From the UHGV virus genome UHGV-0077918: a DNA stretch of 11,144 bases; one strand, 5' to 3'. Under the pieces are notes generated by a model, which saw only the letters and a list, made by a program, of their open reading frames with translations, was not told the DNA's origin and searched no databases. The stretch comes from a virus. The position numbers were made by a program, and so were the translations under genes. Shown piece after piece: positions 21 through 11,144 of this stretch. The stretch's first letter is position 1; every line of letters begins with the position of its first letter.

Positions 21-887
21 TCAGGAAGAAGGCGTTTCAGTGGTGCGGGGATACCGAAGCTTAACAGTAGCTGGGAGCCGGTCTATCAGGTCACATTCCC
101 GGATGGCTCCACGGATGTACTGAGCCAGGAGGATATCTGGCATGTGCGCACGCTGACGCTGGACGGACTGGTGGGGCTGAATCCCATCGCCTATGCCCGC
201 GAGGCAATATCGCTGGCGGCAGCGACCGAAGAGCACGGGGCCAGACTGTTCAGCAATGGCGCGGTGACGTCGGGTGTGTTGCGTACAGAGCAGACGCTGT
301 CAGATCAGGCTTACGAGCGCCTGAAGAAAGATTTTGAGGAGCGTCACACCGGGCTTGGCAATGCTCACCGCCCGATGATCCTTGAGATGGGGCTGGACTG
401 GAAGTCGATGGCGCTGAACGCCGAGGACAGCCAGTTCCTGGAAACCCGCAAGTTTCAGCTTGAAGAAATCTGTCGTCTGTTCCGGGTGCCGTTGCACATG
501 GTGCAGAACACCGATCGCGCCACCTTCAACAATATCGAAGAGCTGGGGCTGGGATTTATCAACTATTCACTGGTGCCGTATCTGACCCGCATCGAACAGC
601 GGATCAACACCGGACTGGTACGAAAAAGTAAGCAGGGCGTTTATTACGCCAAATTTAACGCCGGGGCGTTACTGCGCGGGGATATGAAGTCCCGTTTTGA
701 AGCCTACGCCACCGGGATCAACTGGGGAATTTACTCTCCCAATGACTGCCGCGACCTGGAAGATATGAATCCGCGTCCCGGTGGTGATGTCTATCTCACA
801 CCGATGAACATGACCACGAAACCCTCCGATGGCAGTAAAGCCGGTAAGCAGAAGGATAACGCCAATGCAGACGAAACAACGTCTTGA
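21..887 (+). CDS. Portal protein, HK97 family, C-terminal portion; 5' end disrupted or truncated
   Basis: Frame 3 is open from nt 21 (after an in-frame TAG at 18-20) to TGA at 885-887. The translation (..VYQVTFPDGSTDVLSQEDIWHVRTLTLDGLVGLNPIAYAREAISLA..FRVPLHMV..GDVYLTPMNM) matches my recollection of HK97-family portals. At most 289 aa are encoded, versus roughly 400 aa for this family. Confidence 0.75.
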   Translation, partial: SGRRRFSGAGIPKLNSSWEPVYQVTFPDGSTDVLSQEDIWHVRTLTLDGLVGLNPIAYAREAISLAAATEEHGARLFSNGAVTSGVLRTEQTLSDQAYERLKKDFEERHTGLGNAHRPMILEMGLDWKSMALNAEDSQFLETRKFQLEEICRLFRVPLHMVQNTDRATFNNIEELGLGFINYSLVPYLTRIEQRINTGLVRKSKQGVYYAKFNAGALLRGDMKSRFEAYATGINWGIYSPNDCRDLEDMNPRPGGDVYLTPMNMTTKPSDGSKAGKQKDNANADETTS

Positions 888-1515
888 TGTACCGCTGAGT
901 CTGAAATCTGTCAGTGACTCCGGTGAGTTTGAAGGGTATGGCTCCGTCTTTGGTGTAAAGGACAGTCACGATGATGTGGTGATGTCCGGGGCATTTGCTG
1001 CTTCCCTGCGGGCGTGGAGTGACAGAAAAGCGTTACCTGCGCTGCTCTGGCAGCACCGCATGGATGAACCCATCGGTGTTTACACCGAAATGAAGGAAGA
1101 CGATGTCGGGCTTTACGTCAGGGGACGGTTGCTTATTGATGATGATCCCCTCGCAAAACGCGCACATGCACACATGAAGGCCGGTTCGTTAACCGGCCTT
1201 TCTATTGGGTACGTCCTGAAAGACTGGGAATACGACCGGAGCAAAGAAGCCTTTCTGCTGAAAGAAATCGACCTCTGGGAAGTCAGCCTGGTGACGTTCC
1301 CGTCTAACGACGAGGCGCGGATCAGCGACGTCAAGAACGCACTGGCCCGCGGGGAAATCCCCGAACAGAAAAAAATCGAAAGAGTCCTGCGTGATGTCGG
1401 ACTCTCCCGTACCCAGGCCAAAGCATTCATGGCCGGGGGCTATGGCGCACTGTCCCTGCGCGACGCTGAGGATGTGGGCTCTGCACTGAATGCACTGAAA
1501 AATCTGAACTTCTAA
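865..1515 (+). CDS. Prohead maturation protease, HK97 gp4 family
   Basis: Motif EFEGYGSVFGVKDSHDDVVMSGAF near the N-terminus is typical of HK97-type prohead proteases. ATG 865 is preferred over ATG 829 because GAAGGA at 851-856 sits 8 nt upstream. The gene overlaps the portal 3' end and stops at TAA 1513-1515. Confidence 0.85.
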   Translation: MQTKQRLDVPLSLKSVSDSGEFEGYGSVFGVKDSHDDVVMSGAFAASLRAWSDRKALPALLWQHRMDEPIGVYTEMKEDDVGLYVRGRLLIDDDPLAKRAHAHMKAGSLTGLSIGYVLKDWEYDRSKEAFLLKEIDLWEVSLVTFPSNDEARISDVKNALARGEIPEQKKIERVLRDVGLSRTQAKAFMAGGYGALSLRDAEDVGSALNALKNLNF

Positions 1516-1529
1516 TCAGGAGAAATACG

Positions 1530-2735
1530 ATGGCGGTTGATATTAAAGATGTCGAACAGGTCGCGCAGGAGCTGCAGCAGAAGTTTGACGACTTCAAAGC
1601 AAAGAACGACAAGCGCGTGGATGCGATTGAGCAGGAAAAAGGCAAGCTTGCCGGGCAGGTGGAAACCCTGAACGGGAAACTCAGCGAGCTGGAAAATCTC
1701 AAAAGCGACCTTGAAAAAGAGCTGCTTGAGCTGAAACGTCCGGCAGGTGGTGCGCAAAATAAACTGGCCACCGAGCATAAAGAAGCGTTTGTGGGCTTCC
1801 TGCGTAAAGGCCGTGAAGACGGTCTGCGCGATCTGGAGCGTAAGGCATTGCAGGTGGGTACCGATGAAGACGGTGGCTACGCCGTGCCGGAAGAACTGGA
1901 TCGCAACATTCTTAACCTGCTGAAAGATGAAGTGGTGATGCGTCAGGAAGCCACGGTGATCACCGTTGGCGGTTCCGACTACAAAAAACTGGTGAATCTG
2001 GGCGGTACGGCTTCCGGATGGGTGGGGGAAACGGATACGCGATCCCAGACTGCCACCTCCAGACTGGAGCTGATTGAACCTCTCATGGGGGAAATCTACG
2101 GCAACCCGCAGGCTACCCAGAAAATGCTGGACGATGCCTTCTTCAACGTGGAGGCCTGGATCAACAGCGAGCTGGCAACCGAATTTGCCGAACAGGAAGA
2201 AATTGCCTTTACCTCCGGCGATGGCACCAAGAAGCCGAAAGGGTTCCTGGCGTATGAATCCACTGATGAAACCGACAAGGTCCGGGCGTTCGGCAAACTT
2301 CAGCATATTGTATCCGGCGAAGCGACCGCGGTGACCGCAGACGCCATTATCAAACTGATTTACACGCTGCGTAAGGCACACCGCACTGGCGCGAAGTTCA
2401 TGATGAACAACAACAGCCTGTTTGCCATCCGTCTGCTGAAAGACACCGAGGGTAACTATCTGTGGCGTCCGGGGCTGGAACTGGGGCAGCCGTCCTCTCT
2501 GGCGGGTTACGGTATCGCTGAAAACGAACAGATGCCGGATATCGCCGCTGATGCGAAAGCCATTGCATTTGGTAACTTCAAACGGGGTTACACCATCGTT
2601 GACCGTATCGGCACCCGCATTCTGCGTGACCCGTACACCAATAAACCGTTTGTCGGTTTTTATACCACCAAGCGCACCGGCGGGATGCTGGTCGATTCGC
2701 AGGCCATCAAACTGCTGAAGATTGCAGCGGCGTAA
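1530..2735 (+). CDS. Major capsid protein, HK97 fold, with N-terminal coiled-coil delta (scaffold) domain
   Basis: 401 aa; AGGAG at 1518-1522 sits 7 nt before the ATG. The first ~100 aa are charged and heptad-like (AQELQQKFDDFKAKNDKRVDAIEQEKGKLAGQVETLNGKLSELENLKSDLEKELLELK), followed by DEDGGYAVPEEL, the GGYxVP motif that follows the delta domain in HK97-like capsids. Confidence 0.9.
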   Translation: MAVDIKDVEQVAQELQQKFDDFKAKNDKRVDAIEQEKGKLAGQVETLNGKLSELENLKSDLEKELLELKRPAGGAQNKLATEHKEAFVGFLRKGREDGLRDLERKALQVGTDEDGGYAVPEELDRNILNLLKDEVVMRQEATVITVGGSDYKKLVNLGGTASGWVGETDTRSQTATSRLELIEPLMGEIYGNPQATQKMLDDAFFNVEAWINSELATEFAEQEEIAFTSGDGTKKPKGFLAYESTDETDKVRAFGKLQHIVSGEATAVTADAIIKLIYTLRKAHRTGAKFMMNNNSLFAIRLLKDTEGNYLWRPGLELGQPSSLAGYGIAENEQMPDIAADAKAIAFGNFKRGYTIVDRIGTRILRDPYTNKPFVGFYTTKRTGGMLVDSQAIKLLKIAAA

Positions 2736-2741
2736 TCACTC

Positions 2742-2769
2742 AGGGGCGCGGAACCGCGCCCCCTGTTCT
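2742..2769 (+). terminator. Putative intrinsic terminator or attenuator hairpin downstream of the capsid gene
   Basis: Perfect GC-rich inverted repeat AGGGGCGCGG / CCGCGCCCCT at 2742-2763, followed by GTTCTG. The U-tract is weak, so this may be a partial attenuator or an RNA-stabilising hairpin. Confidence 0.4.
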
Positions 2770-2784
2770 GACGGGTGAAGAATC

Positions 2785-2985
2785 ATGATCCTGAAACAAG
2801 ATCTGAAATGGTCACCGGACGGTATGCGTGTTGAGGTCATTCGGGCCGGTGAGTATGACGACGGGGCGCTTCCTGCCCGGGTGCAGGAGATTGCACTTCA
2901 GGCCGGGTTAGCAGAGCGCGGAATCAGTGCAAAAAGCAGTAAAGCGGCAAAAGAGAAAAAAGCCACGACCAGTAAAGAGGGCTGA
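2785..2985 (+). CDS. Hypothetical small protein (66 aa) between the capsid and connector genes
   Basis: ORF on the operon strand filling the capsid-to-gp6 gap; its stop (2983-2985) lies 2 nt before the next ATG. No family recognised; the RBS is weak. Confidence 0.45.
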   Translation: MILKQDLKWSPDGMRVEVIRAGEYDDGALPARVQEIALQAGLAERGISAKSSKAAKEKKATTSKEG

Positions 2986-2987
2986 GT

Positions 2988-3311
2988 ATGCTTCTGACAA
3001 TGGAAGAGATTAAAGCCCAACTCCGGCTGGATGAGGATTTCGATACTGATGACCGCCATCTGCAACTGCTGGCCTGTGCGGCACAAAAGCGGACGGAAAC
3101 GTATCTGAACCGGAAGCTCTATGCACCGGATGAAACCATTCCGGACAGCGATCCGGACGGGCTGCACCTGCCGGATGATATTCGTCTGGGGATGCTGATG
3201 CTTATCAGCCATTTTTACGAAAACCGCTCGTCGGTTACGGAAGTGGAGAAACTCGACATGCCGCAGAGTTTTGGCTGGCTTGTCGGCCCGTACAGGTACT
3301 TTCCGCAATGA
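2988..3311 (+). CDS. Head-tail connector protein, gp6-like (DNA-packaging / head-tail adaptor family)
   Basis: 107 aa; N-terminus MLLTMEEIKAQLRLDEDFDTDD..LQLL fits the gp6-like connector pattern. AGAGGG lies upstream of the ATG; position after the capsid is as expected. Confidence 0.7.
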   Translation: MLLTMEEIKAQLRLDEDFDTDDRHLQLLACAAQKRTETYLNRKLYAPDETIPDSDPDGLHLPDDIRLGMLMLISHFYENRSSVTEVEKLDMPQSFGWLVGPYRYFPQ

Positions 3312-3718
3312 AAATTCGTCAGGCGCAGACCAGCGCAACCTACATTCTGCCGGACCCCGGTGAACTGAATAAACGCGTCCTGATCCGCCAGCGGGTGGAT
3401 ATGCCCGCGGATAACTTTGGCATGGAGCCTCAATACCCGGTTACGTTCCGGACATGGGCGAAGGTTATCCAGACCAGTGCCACCACCTGGCAGGAAACCG
3501 CGCAGACCGGGGACGCCATCACCCATTACATCACCATTCGTTACCGCCGGGGGATCACCGCTGATTATGAGGTGGTCTGCGGTGACAGTGTGTACCGGGT
3601 GAAACGTCAGCGCGATCTGAACGGGGCGCGGCGCTTTCTGCTGCTGGAGTGTACGGAGCTGGGCGAATGTAGGCAGAGTCACGGAGGCAACAATGACGAC
3701 TTCCTTTTTGCACGTTGA
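3308..3718 (+). CDS. Head closure / head-tail joining protein, HK97 gp7-like
   Basis: 136 aa; ATGA overlap with the gp6-like stop indicates translational coupling. Size and position fit a head closure protein; the C-terminal ~25 aa overlap the next gene. Confidence 0.65.
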   Translation: MKIRQAQTSATYILPDPGELNKRVLIRQRVDMPADNFGMEPQYPVTFRTWAKVIQTSATTWQETAQTGDAITHYITIRYRRGITADYEVVCGDSVYRVKRQRDLNGARRFLLLECTELGECRQSHGGNNDDFLFAR

Positions 3719-4199
3719 TTTTCAGCAGCCCGCGGAGATGCGCTTTAACCGCGCCCGTGTCCGGCGGGCGTTTGTCACGATTGGTCAGCGTCATATGCGT
3801 GATGCCCGTCGGCTGGTGATGCGCCGTGCGCGGTCGGCACCGGGTGAAAACCCCGGTTATCAGACCGGACGCCTGGCTCGTTCGATTGGTTATATGGTGC
3901 CGAGAGCCAGTAAAAAGCGAGCCGGTTTTATGACACGCATTGCCCCTAACCAGCGCAACGGGAGGGGGAACCGGATGATCTCTGGTGACTTCTATCCGGC
4001 GTTTCTGTTTTTTGGTGTCCGGGGAGGAGCAAAACGTCGTCGTAGTCATCATCGTGGTGCATCCGGTGGCAGCGGCTGGCGACTGGCTCCACGTAATAAC
4101 TTCATGGTGGAAACGCTTGAAAAGAACCGCAGCTGGACACGCTATTTTCTGGCGCGGGAATTGCGTAAATCACTGAAGCCGGAGCGACGACACAGATGA
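3693..4199 (+). CDS. HK97 gp10-family neck / tail-component protein
   Basis: 168 aa, basic; GGAGG precedes the ATG. Contains a PGENPGYQTGRLARSI segment resembling the gp10-family signature; ATGA overlap with the next gene. Confidence 0.65.
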   Translation: MTTSFLHVDFQQPAEMRFNRARVRRAFVTIGQRHMRDARRLVMRRARSAPGENPGYQTGRLARSIGYMVPRASKKRAGFMTRIAPNQRNGRGNRMISGDFYPAFLFFGVRGGAKRRRSHHRGASGGSGWRLAPRNNFMVETLEKNRSWTRYFLARELRKSLKPERRHR

Positions 4200-4756
4200 A
4201 ACTGACGCCTGTTATTGCTGCACTGCGTGCCCGCTGTCCGTATTTTGAAAACCGGGTTGCAGGCGCGGCCCAGTTCAAAAATCTGCCGGAGGTCGGAAAG
4301 CTGAGACTCCCGGCGGCGTATGTGGTACCGGGTGATGACTCTCCGGGAGAAAACAAAAGCCAGACCGACTACTGGCAGGAGCTGAAAGAGGGCTTCTCCG
4401 TGGTTGTCATACTGAGTAACGGGCGTGATGAGCGCGGTCAGTTTGCCTCGTATGATGTGGTGGACGATGTCCGGCAGATGCTCTTTAAGGCTCTGCTGGG
4501 CTGGAACCCGGAGGCGTGCGGTAACCCGATTACCTATGACGGCGGCACGCTGCTGGATCTGAATCGTCATGAGCTGATTTATCAGTTCGATTTTTCGGTC
4601 ATCAGCGAGCTGACCGAAGACGATACCCGCCAGCAGGATGACCTGAACAGTCTGGATGAACTGCAAACGCTGGCGATTGATGTTGATTATCTCGATCCCG
4701 GTAACGGGCCTGACGGCGATATCGAACATCACACCGAAATAACCCTTCCTTCCTGA
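4196..4756 (+). CDS. Tail terminator / tail completion-like protein (gpU-like pattern) with acidic C-terminal extension
   Basis: 186 aa; residue pattern (M.L..V..AL..., LP..YVVPG, DYWQEL, FSVVVIL, WNP) resembles tail terminator proteins. Assignment is by pattern and position only. Confidence 0.5.
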   Translation: MKLTPVIAALRARCPYFENRVAGAAQFKNLPEVGKLRLPAAYVVPGDDSPGENKSQTDYWQELKEGFSVVVILSNGRDERGQFASYDVVDDVRQMLFKALLGWNPEACGNPITYDGGTLLDLNRHELIYQFDFSVISELTEDDTRQQDDLNSLDELQTLAIDVDYLDPGNGPDGDIEHHTEITLPS

Positions 4757-4764
4757 GGATCCTC

Positions 4765-4935
4765 ATGTTTGTCAAACCTGTTAAAGGGCGGTCAGTTCCT
4801 GACCCTGCCCGCGGCGACCTTTTGCCCGCCGAAGGGCGAAATGTTGACGAGAACAACTACTGGCTGCGCCGTGAAGCAGCGGGTGATATCCGGCGCGTGA
4901 ATAAAAAGGTGAACACCGATGACGATAAGCTTTAA
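4765..4935 (+). CDS. Small hypothetical protein (56 aa), not in the supplied ORF track
   Basis: My own translation: ATG 4765, MFVKPVKGRSVPDPARGDLLPAEGRNVDENNYWLRREAAGDIRRVNKKVNTDDDKL, TAA 4933-4935. GAGGA at 4755-4759 sits 5 nt upstream; the 3' end overlaps the next gene by 17 nt. Confidence 0.4.
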   Translation: MFVKPVKGRSVPDPARGDLLPAEGRNVDENNYWLRREAAGDIRRVNKKVNTDDDKL

Positions 4936-6202
4936 CACCATTCCGTCGAATACGCTGGTTCCGCTGTTTTATGCGGAAATGGATAACCAGGCGGCGAATA
5001 CCGAAGATCTGGGAAAAGTCACTTTCCGCCCGTCCATCACAGCTTATGTGGTGGGAGATGACTGCTTTGACCAGCGCGATCGCCTGATTGACGCGCTGAA
5101 TAAACCCGGTCCCGGCACGCTTGTCCATCCGACTTACGGTGAGCTGAAAGTCTGTGTTGACGGGGAAGTTCGGGTCAGCACATCGAAGAGTGAAGGACGT
5201 ATTGTCCGCTTTGACCTGAAGTTTGTCGAAGCAGGAGAACTCTCTTACCCCACATCAGGTGCGGCGACGGCGCAGGCGCTGATGTCATCCTGTTCTGCAC
5301 TGGATGACTGCATCAGTGACAGCTTCAGCGGTTTCAGTATCGATGGCGTGGCGGATTTTGTGCAGAACGACGTCGTCGGTAATGCCAGCACAATGCTTGG
5401 GTATGTTTCTGATGCGATGAAAGTGGTGGATTCTGCCGTATCGGATGCCGCCAGGCTGTTGCAGGGGGATATCTCGGTACTTCTGCCGCCGCCATCGTCA
5501 GGCAAAAATTTCGTTGAGCAGGTGCAGAAAATGTGGCGTACCGGGAAACGCCTTTATGGTAACGCCAGCGACCTGGTCACCATGATCAAAACGCTTTCCG
5601 GTGTCAGCCTCGGCAGCGATCTGCAACCGCGCGGCGTCTGGAAAACGGACAGTAAAACCACCGCCACGGCGACGCAGCAGCGTAACGTGGTTGCCAGCAC
5701 CCTTCGTACGACCGCAATCAGCGAAGCGGCGTATGCCGTCATCCGATTGCCTGCGCCAACAACTTCCGCGGTGATGCAGAATGCCGCAGTGGGGCAGTCA
5801 ACAACACCCGCGCAGAGCACCGGCTGGCCTTCCGTCACGCATCCGGCACTGAACAATGCACCGGCGGTGAAAAACACGGTTGACCTGCCAACGTGGGAAG
5901 AACTGACCGACATTCGCGACACACTGAATACGGCAATTGATAAGGAGTTGTCCCGTACAACCAGTGATGCGCTGTTTCTGGCGCTGCGCCGGGTGAAAGC
6001 AGATCTGAATGCGGATATCAACACGCGCCTTGAACAGTCTGCACGGATCATTCAGCGCACGCCGGATGAGGTTTTACCCGCGCTGGTGCTGGCGGCGACC
6101 TGGTTTGATAACGCGGCGCGTGACGCGGACATTATCCGGCGTAATGCCATTACGCATCCCGGCTTTGTGCCGGTGATCCCTCTGAAGGTGCCAGTGCAAT
6201 GA
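4919..6202 (+). CDS. DNA circularisation protein N-domain family (Mu gpN / gp43-like) tail protein; N-terminal ~28 aa possibly derived from a tail sheath gene
   Basis: 427 aa. EDLGK..VVGDDCFDQRDRLIDALNKPGPGTLVHPTYG matches my recollection of the DNA_circ_N domain, and the gene sits immediately upstream of the gpP/gp45/gp46/gp47/gp48 array as in Mu. The first residues (MTISFNTIPSNTLVPLFYAEMDN) look more like a Mu-type sheath N-terminus. Confidence 0.6.
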   Translation: MTISFNTIPSNTLVPLFYAEMDNQAANTEDLGKVTFRPSITAYVVGDDCFDQRDRLIDALNKPGPGTLVHPTYGELKVCVDGEVRVSTSKSEGRIVRFDLKFVEAGELSYPTSGAATAQALMSSCSALDDCISDSFSGFSIDGVADFVQNDVVGNASTMLGYVSDAMKVVDSAVSDAARLLQGDISVLLPPPSSGKNFVEQVQKMWRTGKRLYGNASDLVTMIKTLSGVSLGSDLQPRGVWKTDSKTTATATQQRNVVASTLRTTAISEAAYAVIRLPAPTTSAVMQNAAVGQSTTPAQSTGWPSVTHPALNNAPAVKNTVDLPTWEELTDIRDTLNTAIDKELSRTTSDALFLALRRVKADLNADINTRLEQSARIIQRTPDEVLPALVLAATWFDNAARDADIIRRNAITHPGFVPVIPLKVPVQ

Positions 6203-7273
6203 ACGATAATGTCACGCTACGGGTAAATGGCCGGGAGTGGAATGGCTGGACATCGGTGCGCATCGGTGCCGGTATTGAACGGCTGGGATTTCAGCGTGGA
6301 GATCACCCGCCAGTGGCCGGGAGATGAGGGTATCACCACGCTTCAGCCGCGCATTAAAAATGGTTCAAAAGTGGAAGTGCTGATTGGTGATGAGCTGGTG
6401 ATCACCGGCTGGGTGGAGGCGACCCCCGTTCGTTACGATGCCCGTTCGGTCAGCACCGGTATTGCCGGACGTAGTCTGACTGCTGACCTGATTGACTGTG
6501 CAGCCGAACCGACACAGTTTAACGGACGATCGCTGGTACAGATTGCGCAGGCGCTTGCTGCGCCTTTCGGCATTGAGGTGGTGAACAGCGATGCGCCGTC
6601 GGGTGTTATTCCTGATGTCCAGCCTGATCACGGTGAAACGGTGATTGAGGTAATCAACAAAATACTCGGTCAGCAGCAGGCACTGGCTTACGACGACCCG
6701 CACGGCAGGCTGGTGATTGGCGGTATTGGCTCAACGCGGGCACATACCGCGCTGGTACTTGGGGAAAACATCCTTTCCTGCGATACGGAGAAGAGTATCC
6801 GGGAGCGGTTTTCTGTTTACCAGGTGGCGGGGCAGCGTGCCGGAAACGACGATGATTTCGGTGAGGCCACCACCACCGCGCTGCGGGCCCGCACAGAGGA
6901 CGCATTTATTGCCCGTTACCGTCCGATGTATATCAGGCAGACAGGGCAGGCCACGGGGGCAGGCTGTATTGCGCGTGCTGACTTTGAAGCCCGACAACGG
7001 GCGGCGCGGACGGATGAAACCACCTATGTGGTGCAGGGCTGGCGACAGGGTAACGGTACGCTGTGGCAGCCCAACCAGCGGGTGATTGTCTTCGATCCGG
7101 TCTGTGGTTTCGACAATACCGAACTGCTTGTTTCGGAAGTCACGTTTACTCAGGACCAGAACGGCACCCTGACGGAAATCCGTGTCGGCCCACCTGATGC
7201 TTATCTGCCTGAACCAGAAGCCCCCGGCGCGCGGAAAAAGAAAAAAGCCAGAGTACAGGAGGACCCGTTCTGA
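6199..7273 (+). CDS. Baseplate protein, Mu gpP (gp44)-like; reading frame apparently interrupted near nt 6285-6290
   Basis: ATG 6199 overlaps the upstream stop (ATGA) and frame 1 encodes MNDNVTLRVNGREWNGWTSVRIGAGIERL before a TGA at 6325-6327. The rest of the protein (DFSVEITRQWPGDEG.. to 7273) is in frame 2, which is closed upstream of 6227. Confidence 0.6.
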
Positions 7274-7821
7274 TGAGGACGATTGAAGCCATGCAGCGAC
7301 AACTCCTCGGCCTGATTGGGCGGGCCGTGGTGAAAAGCATCAGTGCCGCCACGAAATGTCAGACCGTGGATGTGTCCCTGATTGCCGGTGAACCCAAAGC
7401 CGGGGTTGAACATCTTGAACCCTACGGTTTTACCGCAAGGGCAAACAGCGGTGCGGAAGCGGTGGTGTTGTTTCCGGATGGCGACCGTTCTCATGCGGTG
7501 GTTGTTACGGTGTCGGACCGGCGCTACCGCCTGAAAGGGCTGCAGACGGGTGAGGTGGCTGTCTATGACGATCAGGGGCAGTCCGTGACGCTGACCCGGG
7601 AGGGGATCGTGGTGGACGGTGCAGGTAAAACGATCACGTTTCGCAATGCACCTGAAGCACGTTTTGAAATGGACCTGGAAGTGACCGGACAGGTGAAAGA
7701 CCTGTGCGACTCCGGCGGCACCACCATGTCAGCGATGCGGCTTGCCTATAACGGGCATCGTCACAGAGAGAACGGTCAGGGCAGTAACACCGACAAACCG
7801 GATAAAGCGATGGAGGCATGA
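7273..7821 (+). CDS. Baseplate spike / assembly protein, gpV-like (Mu gp45-like)
   Basis: 182 aa; TGATG overlap with the gpP-like stop. C-terminal CDSGGTT..HRH motif resembles the P2 gpV / Mu gp45 family. Confidence 0.7.
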   Translation: MRTIEAMQRQLLGLIGRAVVKSISAATKCQTVDVSLIAGEPKAGVEHLEPYGFTARANSGAEAVVLFPDGDRSHAVVVTVSDRRYRLKGLQTGEVAVYDDQGQSVTLTREGIVVDGAGKTITFRNAPEARFEMDLEVTGQVKDLCDSGGTTMSAMRLAYNGHRHRENGQGSNTDKPDKAMEA

Positions 7822-8246
7822 TGGAACTGTGGCTGACGGTGAACGGTAAACGCACCTGCGCCAGCGCACCGCTGGATCCGCTGACCCGCGCCGTGGTGAT
7901 TTCCCTGTTTACCTGGCGGCGGGCGGAGCCTGATGACAACGCCGACGTCCCGATGGGATGGTGGGGGGATACCTGGCCTGCGGTACAGAATGACCGTTAC
8001 GGCTCCCGACTGTGGCTGCTTCAGCGCAGCAAACTGACCAATCAGCTGGTGCAGACGGTAAGGGGGTATATCCGCGAATGCCTGCAATGGATGATTGATG
8101 ATGGCGTGGTGTCCCGTATTGATCTGGATATCCGCCGCACCGGGATTAATGAACTGGGTAACAGTATCACTCTCTGGCGTCGTGACGGACCGGTAATGAT
8201 TTCTTTTGATGATCTGTGGAGTGCGATAACGCATGGCGGACAGTGA
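7818..8246 (+). CDS. Baseplate wedge protein, Mu gp46-like (GPW/gp25 family)
   Basis: 142 aa; ATGA overlap with the upstream gene. Size and position between the gpV-like and J-like genes match the Mu gp46 position. Confidence 0.65.
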   Translation: MMELWLTVNGKRTCASAPLDPLTRAVVISLFTWRRAEPDDNADVPMGWWGDTWPAVQNDRYGSRLWLLQRSKLTNQLVQTVRGYIRECLQWMIDDGVVSRIDLDIRRTGINELGNSITLWRRDGPVMISFDDLWSAITHGGQ

Positions 8247-9291
8247 ATTTCAGCGCCCGACGCTGGCAGAAAATATCAGTATGCTCCGTAACGATTTATT
8301 CGCCAGGCTGGACGTCAGCGACACGCTCCGGCGCATGGATGAAGACGTGCGGGCAAAGGTGTATGCGGCGGCGCTGCATACGGTTTACGGTTACATCGAT
8401 TATCTGGCAATGAACATGCTGCCTGACCTGTGCGATGAGTCCTGGCTGGCGCGACATGCTGCGATGAAACGGTGTCCGCGCAAGGGGGCCACGGCTGCCA
8501 GCGGGTATATGCGCTGGGAAGGTGTCAGCGATGGCCTGAAGGTGACTGCCGGGAGCGTGATTCAGCGCGATGACCTGGTTCAGTACACGGCAACTGCCGA
8601 TGCAACCAGCTCCGGTGGTGTCCTGCGCGTGCCGATCGCCTGCTCAAGTGCAGGCGCGGTCGGTAACGCTGACGACGGTACGGCATTAATCCTGGTCACG
8701 CCGGTGAATGGTCTGCCGTCTTCCGGTGTTGCAGATACTCTGACTGGCGGATTCGATACTGAAGATCTGGAAACGTGGCGCGCCCGCGTCATTGAGCGGT
8801 ATTACTGGACGCCGCAGGGCGGGGCTGACGGGGACTATGTCGTCTGGGCTAAAGAAGTGCCCGGCATTACCCGCGCATGGACATACCGTCACTGGATGGG
8901 AACGGGAACTGTCGGTGTGATGATTGCCAGCAGTGACCTGATTAATCCCATTCCGGAAGAATCAACGGAAACGGCGGCAAGACAACATATCGGGCCACTG
9001 GCCCCGGTGGCAGGCTCTGATTTGTATGTATTCAGGCCGGTGGCACATACGGTGGATTTTCATATCCGCGTGACGCCGGACACACCAGAAATACGGGCTG
9101 CCATCACCGCGGAGTTGCGTTCGTTCCTGCTGCGTGATGGTTATCCGCAGGGAGAACTGAAGGTATCGCGTATCAGTGAGGCGATTTCCGGTGCGAACGG
9201 GGAATACAGCCATCAGTTGCTTGCACCGGCAGACAATATCTCCATTGCAAAAAATGAACTGGCGGTACTGGGGACGATTTCATGGACGTGA
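8233..9291 (+). CDS. Baseplate J-like protein (Mu gp47-like)
   Basis: 352 aa; overlaps the upstream gene by 14 nt. Size and position are typical of baseplate J family proteins. Confidence 0.75.
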
Positions 9292-9866
9292 CAAACGATG
9301 ATTACATCCGTCTGTTGTCGGCACTGTTGCCCCCCGGTCCGGCGTGGTCAGCCAGCGATCCGGCGATTGCCGGTGCGGCACCGTCATTAACCCGCGTTCA
9401 TCAGCGTGCGGATGCCCTGATGCGGGAGCTGGATCCGCGCACCACCACTGAACTGATAAACCGCTGGGAGCGTCTGTGCGGTCTGCCGGATGAATGTATT
9501 CCCGCAGGGACACAGACCCTTCGCCAGCGTCAGCAACGGCTGGATGCGAAGGTTAACCTGGCGGGCGGCATCAACGAGAATTTTTATCTTGCACAGCTTG
9601 CTGCCCTGGGCAGACCAGACGCTACCATCACGCGATACGACAAAAGCACGTTCACCTGCTCATCGGCCTGTACTGACGCGGTGAATGCGCCGGAATGGCG
9701 GTATTACTGGCAGGTCAACATGCCAGCCGCCACAAACACCACCTGGATGACATGTGGCGATCCCTGTGATTCCGCGCTGCGTATCTGGGGCGACACCGTT
9801 GTCGAATGTGTGCTTAACAAACTCTGCCCGTCGCATACCTACGTAATTTTTAAATATCCGGAGTAA
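9282..9866 (+). CDS. Tail protein, Mu gp48-like (YmfQ-like, DUF2313-type)
   Basis: 194 aa; overlaps the J-like gene's 3' end and lies immediately upstream of the tail fibre gene, as for gp48/YmfQ-type proteins. Confidence 0.6.
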
Positions 9867-9869
9867 TCC

Positions 9870-10571
9870 ATGCATCGTATAGACACGAAAACCGCGCAGA
9901 AGGATAAGTTCGGCGCGGGTAAGAACGGTTTTACCCGTGGTAACCCCCAGACTGGCACACCTGCCACCGATCTGGATGATGACTACTTTGATATGTTGCA
10001 GGAAGAACTCTGCAGCGTGGTGGAGGCATCCGGTGCCAGCCTGGAGAAGGGGCGAAACGACCAGTTGCTTACCGCGCTTCGTGCTCTGCTGTTAAGCCGC
10101 AAGAATCCGTTTGGTGATATCAAATCGGATGGCACGGTGAAAACGGCTCTCGAAAACCTTGGTTTGGGAGAAGGCTCAGCATTACCCGTTGGTGTGCCTG
10201 TTCCGTGGCCTTCAGCCACTCCGCCAACAGGCTGGCTGAAATGCAATGGTGCGGCTTTTTCTGCTGAAGAATACCCGGAACTGGCAAAGGCTTATCCAAC
10301 AAATAAATTACCTGATTTACGCGGTGAGTTTATTCGTGGATGGGATGATGGGCGCGGGGTGGATGCAGGGCGCGCGCTTCTCTCGGCGCAGTCCGATTTA
10401 TTTAAAGCGCACCACCACAATTTTTCGTTTTTTAGAGCCTGGGCTGTAGATGGAGGGACTGGTGCTGTATACGATTTTAACGGCAGTGCAGGCAGAGATA
10501 CCGACGACACCGGCGGAAATGAAACGCGCCCCCGCAACATTGCATTTAACTACATTGTGAGGGCTGCATAA
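9870..10571 (+). CDS. Tail fibre protein: conserved N-terminal region plus tail-collar-type variable C-terminus
   Basis: 233 aa. The N-terminus [46 protein letters not shown] is typical of enterobacterial prophage tail fibres. The C-terminal part (..[18 protein letters not shown]..) resembles the phage tail collar domain. The gene contains the invertase crossover site at 10147-10172. Confidence 0.75.
10147..10172. other. Hin/Gin/Pin/Cin-family serine invertase crossover site (hix/gix-like) inside the tail fibre gene
   Basis: CTCTCGAAAACC-TT-GGTTTGGGAGAA: two 12-bp half-sites in inverted orientation around a 2-bp core. By my count 19 of 26 positions match hixL (TTCTTGAAAACCAAGGTTTTTGATAA). 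It sits at the constant/variable junction of the fibre ORF (encoding ..ALENLGLGE..). Confidence 0.6.
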
Positions 10572-11144
10572 TGACACAGGCAAAATTAAACAGTGAATTT
10601 ATTGCCACGGAACCCGGCTTCATTACCGTTTATAACTACAACGGAGAAACGCGGGAATATATATCCACATCAACTGAGTATCTTGCGGTGGGTGTCGGTA
10701 TTCCGGCGCATTCCTGTTTAGATGCTCCTGGCTCAAACAAAGCTGGTTATGCAATCTGCCGAACGGTAGATTTAAACTCATGGGAATATGTGTCAGACCA
10801 TCGCGGTGAAACGGTCTATAGCACCGAAACAGGAGAATCGAAAGAAATCACATCTCTGGGTGATTACCCCGAAAATACAACCACTATCGCCCCGTTAACA
10901 CCATACGATAAATGGGATGGTGAGAAATGGGTGACGGATACTGAGGCACAATGTAGCGCCGCAGTGGACGCGGCAGAAATCCAACGCCAGTCACTGATTG
11001 ATGCAGCAATGAATTCCGTCGGTCTGATTCAGCTGAAATTACAGGCCGGACGTAAACTTACGCAGGAAGAAACAACCAGACTTAACGCTGTGCTGGATTA
11101 CATTGACGCGGTGACGGCAACAGATACCAGCACCGCGCCGGATG
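10571..11144 (+). CDS. Tail fibre assembly protein (Tfa family), 3' end beyond the window
   Basis: Not in the ORF track because there is no stop in the window. My translation starts at the ATG overlapping the fibre stop (TAATG): [23 protein letters not shown]...NAVLDYIDAVTATDTSTAPD. The ..VDTSTAPD motif and the DHRGETVY / PEN / KWDGEKWV pattern match lambda-type Tfa proteins as I recall them. Confidence 0.75.
   Translation, partial: MTQAKLNSEFIATEPGFITVYNYNGETREYISTSTEYLAVGVGIPAHSCLDAPGSNKAGYAICRTVDLNSWEYVSDHRGETVYSTETGESKEITSLGDYPENTTTIAPLTPYDKWDGEKWVTDTEAQCSAAVDAAEIQRQSLIDAAMNSVGLIQLKLQAGRKLTQEETTRLNAVLDYIDAVTATDTSTAPD

Follow-up and report, generated by a model that had tools for sequence, protein, structure and literature searches.

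A baseplate hub gene in two reading frames: an apparently private 5-nt deletion in an SfV-like phage contig

The window, the whole 11,144-nt stretch of viral DNA analyzed here, carries a pseudogene member of the Mu gp44/gpP family of baseplate hubs, its coding sequence divided between two reading frames at a 5-nt gap. The gap is probably a genuine mutation that turned the hub gene into a pseudogene, within a defective SfV-like prophage or phage element. The case is one of ordinary gene decay or, less likely, of an artifact; it is of an already known kind and is not programmed recoding. The initial annotation had described a gpP-like gene split over two frames by either an inactivating mutation or a sequencing error. 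Every coordinate it gave was confirmed, both causes are retained and the choice between them is narrowed; the exact 5-nt lesion, its apparently private status, the low-coverage source and a neighboring 4.2-kb deletion are added.

A hub gene in two reading frames

The ATG at 6199 shares the bases ATGA with the TGA stop codon (6200-6202) of the upstream gene. It opens a 42-codon ORF in frame 1 that bears the native N-terminus of a Mu gp44/gpP-type hub, MNDNVTLRVNGREWNGWTSVRIGAGIERL, followed by 13 unrelated residues, GFQRGDHPPVAGR, and the TGA at 6325-6327. The other 328 hub residues lie in frame 2, which is shut by a TAA at 6224-6226 and open from ATG 6227 to 7273 (348 codons). ATG 6227 is the start of the mechanically derived ORF; the public gene call uses ATG 6242, an out-of-frame codon that has a Shine-Dalgarno-like GGGAG (6233-6237) 4 nt upstream. 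No single uninterrupted hub ORF is present, the gene being split into the two overlapping pieces listed in Table 1. The Pfam profile GpP-like_1st is divided in the same way: profile positions 2-26 (E=1.5e-5) fall in the frame-1 fragment and positions 29-85 in the frame-2 ORF, a break in the first domain, between positions 26 and 29, that is independent of the alignment.

Alignment to SfV, SfIV, SfI and the E. coli prophage AMSHJX01 places a 5-nt gap after window position 6284 or, equivalently, 6285 or 6286, exactly within the interval 6284-6290 to which the initial annotation had assigned the switch. The relatives read ...GAACGGCT-GGCGC-GGGATTTCAG..., and the absence of these 5 nt from the window is the sole length difference in this four-relative alignment; reads of the intact allele over 6270-6300 would carry CTGGCGCGGGAT. 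At the lesion itself, CT-GGCGC-GGGAT in the relatives corresponds to CTGGGAT in the window. GG microhomology on both sides allows three placements, so that the deleted block can be written as GGCGC, GCGCG or CGCGG.

At the codon level, CTG GCG CGG GAT (Leu-Ala-Arg-Asp) is reduced to CTG G GAT, with a single G in place of Ala30-Arg31; Leu29 is the last native codon of frame 1 and Asp32 the first of frame 2. The lesion is one of 5 nt rather than a single-base slip, and its net effect is to set the remainder of the gene one base forward (+1) of the start frame. When GGCGC is put back, one 359-aa ORF results, with 3 amino acid differences from each of the SfV, SfII, 689R6 and E. coli AHB3 proteins. 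Because repair of the gap yields one ORF nearly identical to four orthologues, the two-frame pattern is not a matter of chance.

Table 1. Positions of the hub gene pieces, the two deletions and the neighboring genes in the window
Feature	Position	Strand	Description and basis
Sheath::gpN fusion ORF	4919..6202	+	Sheath residues 1-28 joined in frame to gp43/gpN from ~Glu58; 427 aa
~4.2-kb deletion junction	4998..5001		ATAC microhomology; blastn mapping, junction sequences, SfII annotation
Hub 5' fragment	6199..6327	+	Codons 1-29 (6199-6285) native, codons 30-42 out of frame; Pfam
5-nt deletion site	6284..6287		Alignment to relatives
Hub 3' part	6287..7273	+	Frame 2, native from Asp32 (GAT 6287-6289) to stop
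Downstream baseplate genes	7273..9866	+	Intact, same length as in SfII: gp45 spike 7273-7821; gp46 7818/7821-8246; gp47 baseplate J 8233-9291; gp48 9282-9866

The region belongs to the SfV/SfII/SfIV/SfI group of temperate E. coli and Shigella phages, with 97-98% identity by megablast and blastn. Phages of this group combine an HK97-type head with a Mu-type contractile tail. Phages 689R6, 720R4, SfI, SfII and SfIV align at 97-98% identity over 88-92% of the window in two collinear blocks, related prophages occur in ~1,090 of 5,426 complete E. coli genomes, and identity together with the order of head and baseplate genes places the window among the SfV-like phages. Records of the relatives contain a single 1080-nt hub ORF, labeled variously as a tail protein similar to Mu P, a baseplate hub or a phage baseplate assembly protein.

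Profile and structure matches agree with these labels and with the gpP-like assignment of the initial annotation. The SfV orthologue contains the Pfam domains GpP-like_1st, Gp44-like_2nd and GpP_4th (E values of 3e-23, 9e-27 and 2e-18), and in the window the two pieces together account for domain 1 at positions 2-26 and 29-85 and for domains 2 and 4; the 3' part holds the remainder of GpP-like_1st, then Gp44-like_2nd and GpP_4th. Residues 1-348 of the SfV orthologue match residues 1-348 of Mu gp44 (PDB 1WRU, E=1.2e-50), and the orthologue also matches the MuSo2 43-kDa tail protein (PDB 3CDD, E=2.6e-52). The alignment of Mu gp44 begins at residue 1 and so covers the N-terminus encoded in frame 1; the frame-1 ATG is the start codon of every intact homologue, and none was found to start at the equivalent of ATG 6227.

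Gene order, as read from Pfam labels on the contig and from SfII, SfV and E. coli annotations, places the hub between gp43/gpN (tube initiator / DNA circularization) and the gp45 spike, which is followed by gp46, gp47 and gp48. As judged from sequence, the gene is unambiguously a homologue of the Mu gp44/gpP baseplate hub. Mu gp44 is a trimeric hub whose tube-like domains make up a pseudo-six-fold ring under the gp43 tube initiator; it binds the gp45 spike as well as the tape measure's C-terminus (PMC11915804).

Occurrence of the deletion among relatives

The initial annotation had proposed a check of whether related prophages share the indel, and this comparison indicates that the 5-nt deletion is private to the contig. 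A set of 108 full-length homologues was drawn from the phage, E. coli and IMG/VR loci retrieved for the comparison. Each of them has the 5 nt (G,G,C,G,C), and 102 have an intact 1080-nt ORF. Over positions 6100-6600, 1,097 E. coli records match, all at below 99% identity, and every E. coli match listed is 5 nt longer than the query. The length difference recurs over 5.2 kb, where the closest E. coli genome among the matches listed, at 99.0% identity, carries the hub gene intact. A 31-mer across the junction has no match in GTDB representative genomes and a 20-mer has none in IMG/VR, where the intact version of the site is found in at least 120 contigs. Exact-product look-up returned no record of the 348-aa product from ATG 6227, and for the 343-aa product of the public gene call and the 427-aa fusion product it returned only this very contig. 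These look-ups give no independent sighting, because the latter two products are known only from this contig.

Six JGI/ENA metagenome contigs (L128-L133) match the junction 20-mer and were rejected as chance matches on the basis of blastn and inspection, as they have unrelated flanks and the match extends over only 24 nt. They carry the junction 20-24-mer in unrelated genes, four of which (L129-L132) encode ...GIERLGFQ... in frame. Their coincidental match shows that 20-mer scans of very large collections give chance matches.

Other frame-breaking indels do occur in the hub gene. They are found in 6 of the 108 related contigs (IMG/VR L019, L020, L037, L075, L030 and L040), either as 1-base deletions at alignment columns 765, 1028 or 1048 or as a shared 16-nt deletion at columns 231-247; of the four contigs with single-base deletions, three have them near the 3' end. 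These breaks, which may be errors or real pseudogenes, are independent of the one in the window and show that breaks of the hub gene are not rare.

The contig and its 4.2-kb deletion

The window is a whole SPAdes-style metagenome contig, ENA ERZ773149 NODE_2963_length_11144_cov_3.261340, with a k-mer coverage of 3.26. At that coverage, a Poisson estimate predicts a single supporting k-mer occurrence for ~13% of covered positions. The contig ends at assembly breaks on both sides, within the portal gene on the left and within the tail fiber assembly gene on the right. A Shigella chromosomal remnant was considered as the source and dropped, the source being a metagenome contig.

Over 7,746 positions at which at least 20 relatives are aligned, the contig has 3 private substitutions. 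The only one in the hub gene is synonymous, in a Pro codon at 7216. The other two, at 3422 (25 aligned relatives) and 5276 (116 aligned relatives), fall at first codon positions and are probably non-synonymous; the former lies in an ATG Met codon of the head-tail adaptor gene, the latter in a GCG Ala codon of the fusion ORF. With no private non-synonymous change in the hub gene, the deletion is either very recent or artifactual, although a test for relaxed selection that has one substitution to draw on is too small to be informative.

A second lesion lies upstream of the hub gene. By blastn, window positions 52-5001 correspond to 1501-6450 of the SfII locus and positions 4998-10173 to 10651-15831, such that ~4.2 kb is absent relative to SfII and phage 689R6. 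The missing block comprises three whole genes, for the tube, the small tail assembly protein (chaperone) and the tape measure, together with almost the entire sheath gene and the first ~57 codons of gp43/gpN. In SfII (KC736978.1), the stretch from sheath to tape measure lies at ~7900-12100. The sheath::gpN fusion ORF exists because this deletion created it; residues 24-78 of its product match positions 34-88 of the Pfam profile DNA_circ_N, and its stop codon overlaps the hub start codon. This junction also appears to be private to the contig: a 22-mer across it has no match in IMG/VR or GTDB representatives, and complete E. coli genomes align over at most 50% of a 401-nt query that spans it.

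The complete tail module of sheath, tube, chaperone, tape measure, tube initiator and hub is not present, and the element as assembled could make no contractile tail even if its hub were intact. All other genes on the contig equal their SfII counterparts in length, and the downstream baseplate genes are translationally coupled to the broken hub gene.

Two boundaries of similarity were seen near the contig ends. Similarity to SfI, SfII and SfIV stops at 10173, and the remaining stretch (10174-11144), the distal tail fiber and fiber-assembly region, resembles other E. coli prophages at ≤93% identity; it is the usual mosaic host-range cassette. At the other end, the first 51 nt, in the portal gene, match SfV and not SfI, SfII, SfIV, 689R6 or 720R4, whose matches begin at 52, and thus positions 1-51 look like a mosaic boundary.

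Origin of the split and comparison with known systems

The preferred explanation is a small deletion in an element that also lost tail genes. The five nucleotides GGCGC would have been lost between two GG dinucleotides, most likely by replication slippage or microhomology-mediated deletion; that they were lost from template DNA, rather than during library preparation or assembly, and that slippage was the mechanism, we infer. Translation from the native coupled ATG 6199 would then give a 42-residue peptide of 29 native and 13 unrelated residues that stops at the TGA at 6325, and the 328 remaining native codons, in the +1 frame, would be left unread, making the gene a pseudogene. The loss of sheath, tube, chaperone and tape measure from the same 4.2 kb would make the element a defective prophage or phage genome, and the hub would no longer be under selection. 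Two private lesions in one tail module form a coherent picture of a decaying prophage.

It is possible, though a good deal less probable, that the 5-nt gap, and perhaps the 4.2-kb junction too, arose during library preparation, sequencing or low-coverage metaSPAdes assembly, the library step being polymerase template switching at microhomology, and that the hub gene of the real phage is intact. The contig as a whole is a SPAdes product of such low coverage that one aberrant read could define the site. Both lesions have short microhomology (GG and ATAC), as template-switch products do, and the hub gene has no decay elsewhere. Neither deletion is found in any other related sequence, which leaves both without independent sequencing confirmation. 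Against an artifact, multi-base deletions outside homopolymer runs are very rare in Illumina data and a 5-nt deletion is not a typical error, and the private substitution count shows the contig to be otherwise clean rather than error-prone. Furthermore, since assemblers normally retain the branch with better coverage, an artifactual read would have to be the sole cover at two separate places. Reads must span the 4.2-kb junction, because a de Bruijn assembler such as SPAdes, given how it works, cannot join sequences over a 4-nt overlap, and the straight passage of the contig through the junction suggests that no competing, sheath-containing path was present.

Programmed frameshifting was considered as an explanation of the two frames and rejected. 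A scan of 6224-6330 for X XXY YYZ heptamers, homopolymers of at least 4 and prfB-type CTTTGA/CCCTGA +1 motifs found none, bearing out the earlier statement that no slippery heptamer is present. None of the 108 homologues and none of the ~1,100 matching E. coli records has the two-frame layout; because it occurs in no relative, no recoding signal could have been selected.

Unprogrammed rescue of the hub is very unlikely for the same reasons and for others. It could take place by a low-level +1 ribosomal shift, in which tRNA-Gly slips from GGG to GGA at GGG-AGA-TGA (6319-6327) during a pause at the rare AGA and the stop codon that end frame 1; the product would be a 357-aa protein in which 12 unrelated residues replace 14 native ones. 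Alternatively, re-initiation at ATG 6242, the start of the public gene call, behind its Shine-Dalgarno-like GGGAG would give an N-terminally altered hub of 343 aa. However, either product would miss or scramble the initial strands of its first, tube-like domain (Pfam profile positions 1-28), which in Mu forms the pseudo-six-fold tube-like ring in the trimeric hub (PMC11915804), and with the sheath, tube and tape measure genes absent the hub would be without assembly partners. GGGAG, both at 6233-6237 and within 6319-6323, lacks a conserved context. Relatives carry the same bases at 6233-6244 and 6319-6327 in the aligned region, and neither site is therefore specific to the split gene. It is hardly credible that the contig represents a viable or selected derivative that still makes the hub, its fusion ORF and retained head and baseplate genes forming a reduced particle or satellite-like element.

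The significance of the split gene extends little beyond annotation. The two ORFs are best annotated as one frameshifted pseudogene of a Mu gp44-type baseplate hub; otherwise they would be entered, wrongly, as a 42-aa hypothetical protein and a 343/348-aa baseplate protein with an incorrect N-terminus. ORF 4919-6202 needs a flag that marks it as a deletion fusion, and counts of intact or inducible phages should leave the contig out. In low-coverage metagenome contigs, a frame break calls for confirmation at the level of reads before it is interpreted biologically.

Among known systems, the split gene superficially resembles the lambda G/GT-type tail assembly chaperone -1 frameshift, as both present a tail-module gene in two overlapping frames. 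Programmed sites of that kind contain a slippery heptamer and are kept among relatives, whereas the window shows neither feature; the shift it would need is +1 and was made by a private deletion, and the chaperone gene, the usual home of the lambda G/GT-type frameshift, falls inside the deleted 4.2 kb. The closest likeness is to the hub genes of SfV (orf16), SfII (SfII_18), SfIV (SfIV_15) and SfI (MuP protein), at 97-99% nucleotide identity, and, in the same set of close relatives, to the phage baseplate assembly proteins of E. coli prophages (for example, WP_114107264.1 and WP_074477258.1). The window shares with them the order gpN, hub, gp45, gp46, gp47, gp48 and fiber, and its repaired protein differs at 3 of 359 residues. 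In contrast to the window, these relatives have single 1080-nt ORFs with the 5 nt at codons 30-31 in place, as well as the 4.2-kb block from sheath to tape measure. Mu gp44 (gene P; PDB 1WRU and 9KI1) is a full-length match with the same Pfam architecture, but it is a distant orthologue by sequence and, unlike the hub in the window, occupies one reading frame. Although the evidence from the window comes from a single low-coverage metagenome contig, its combination of a small out-of-frame indel with a large internal deletion in the structural module is that of the cryptic prophage pseudogenes of Enterobacteriaceae.
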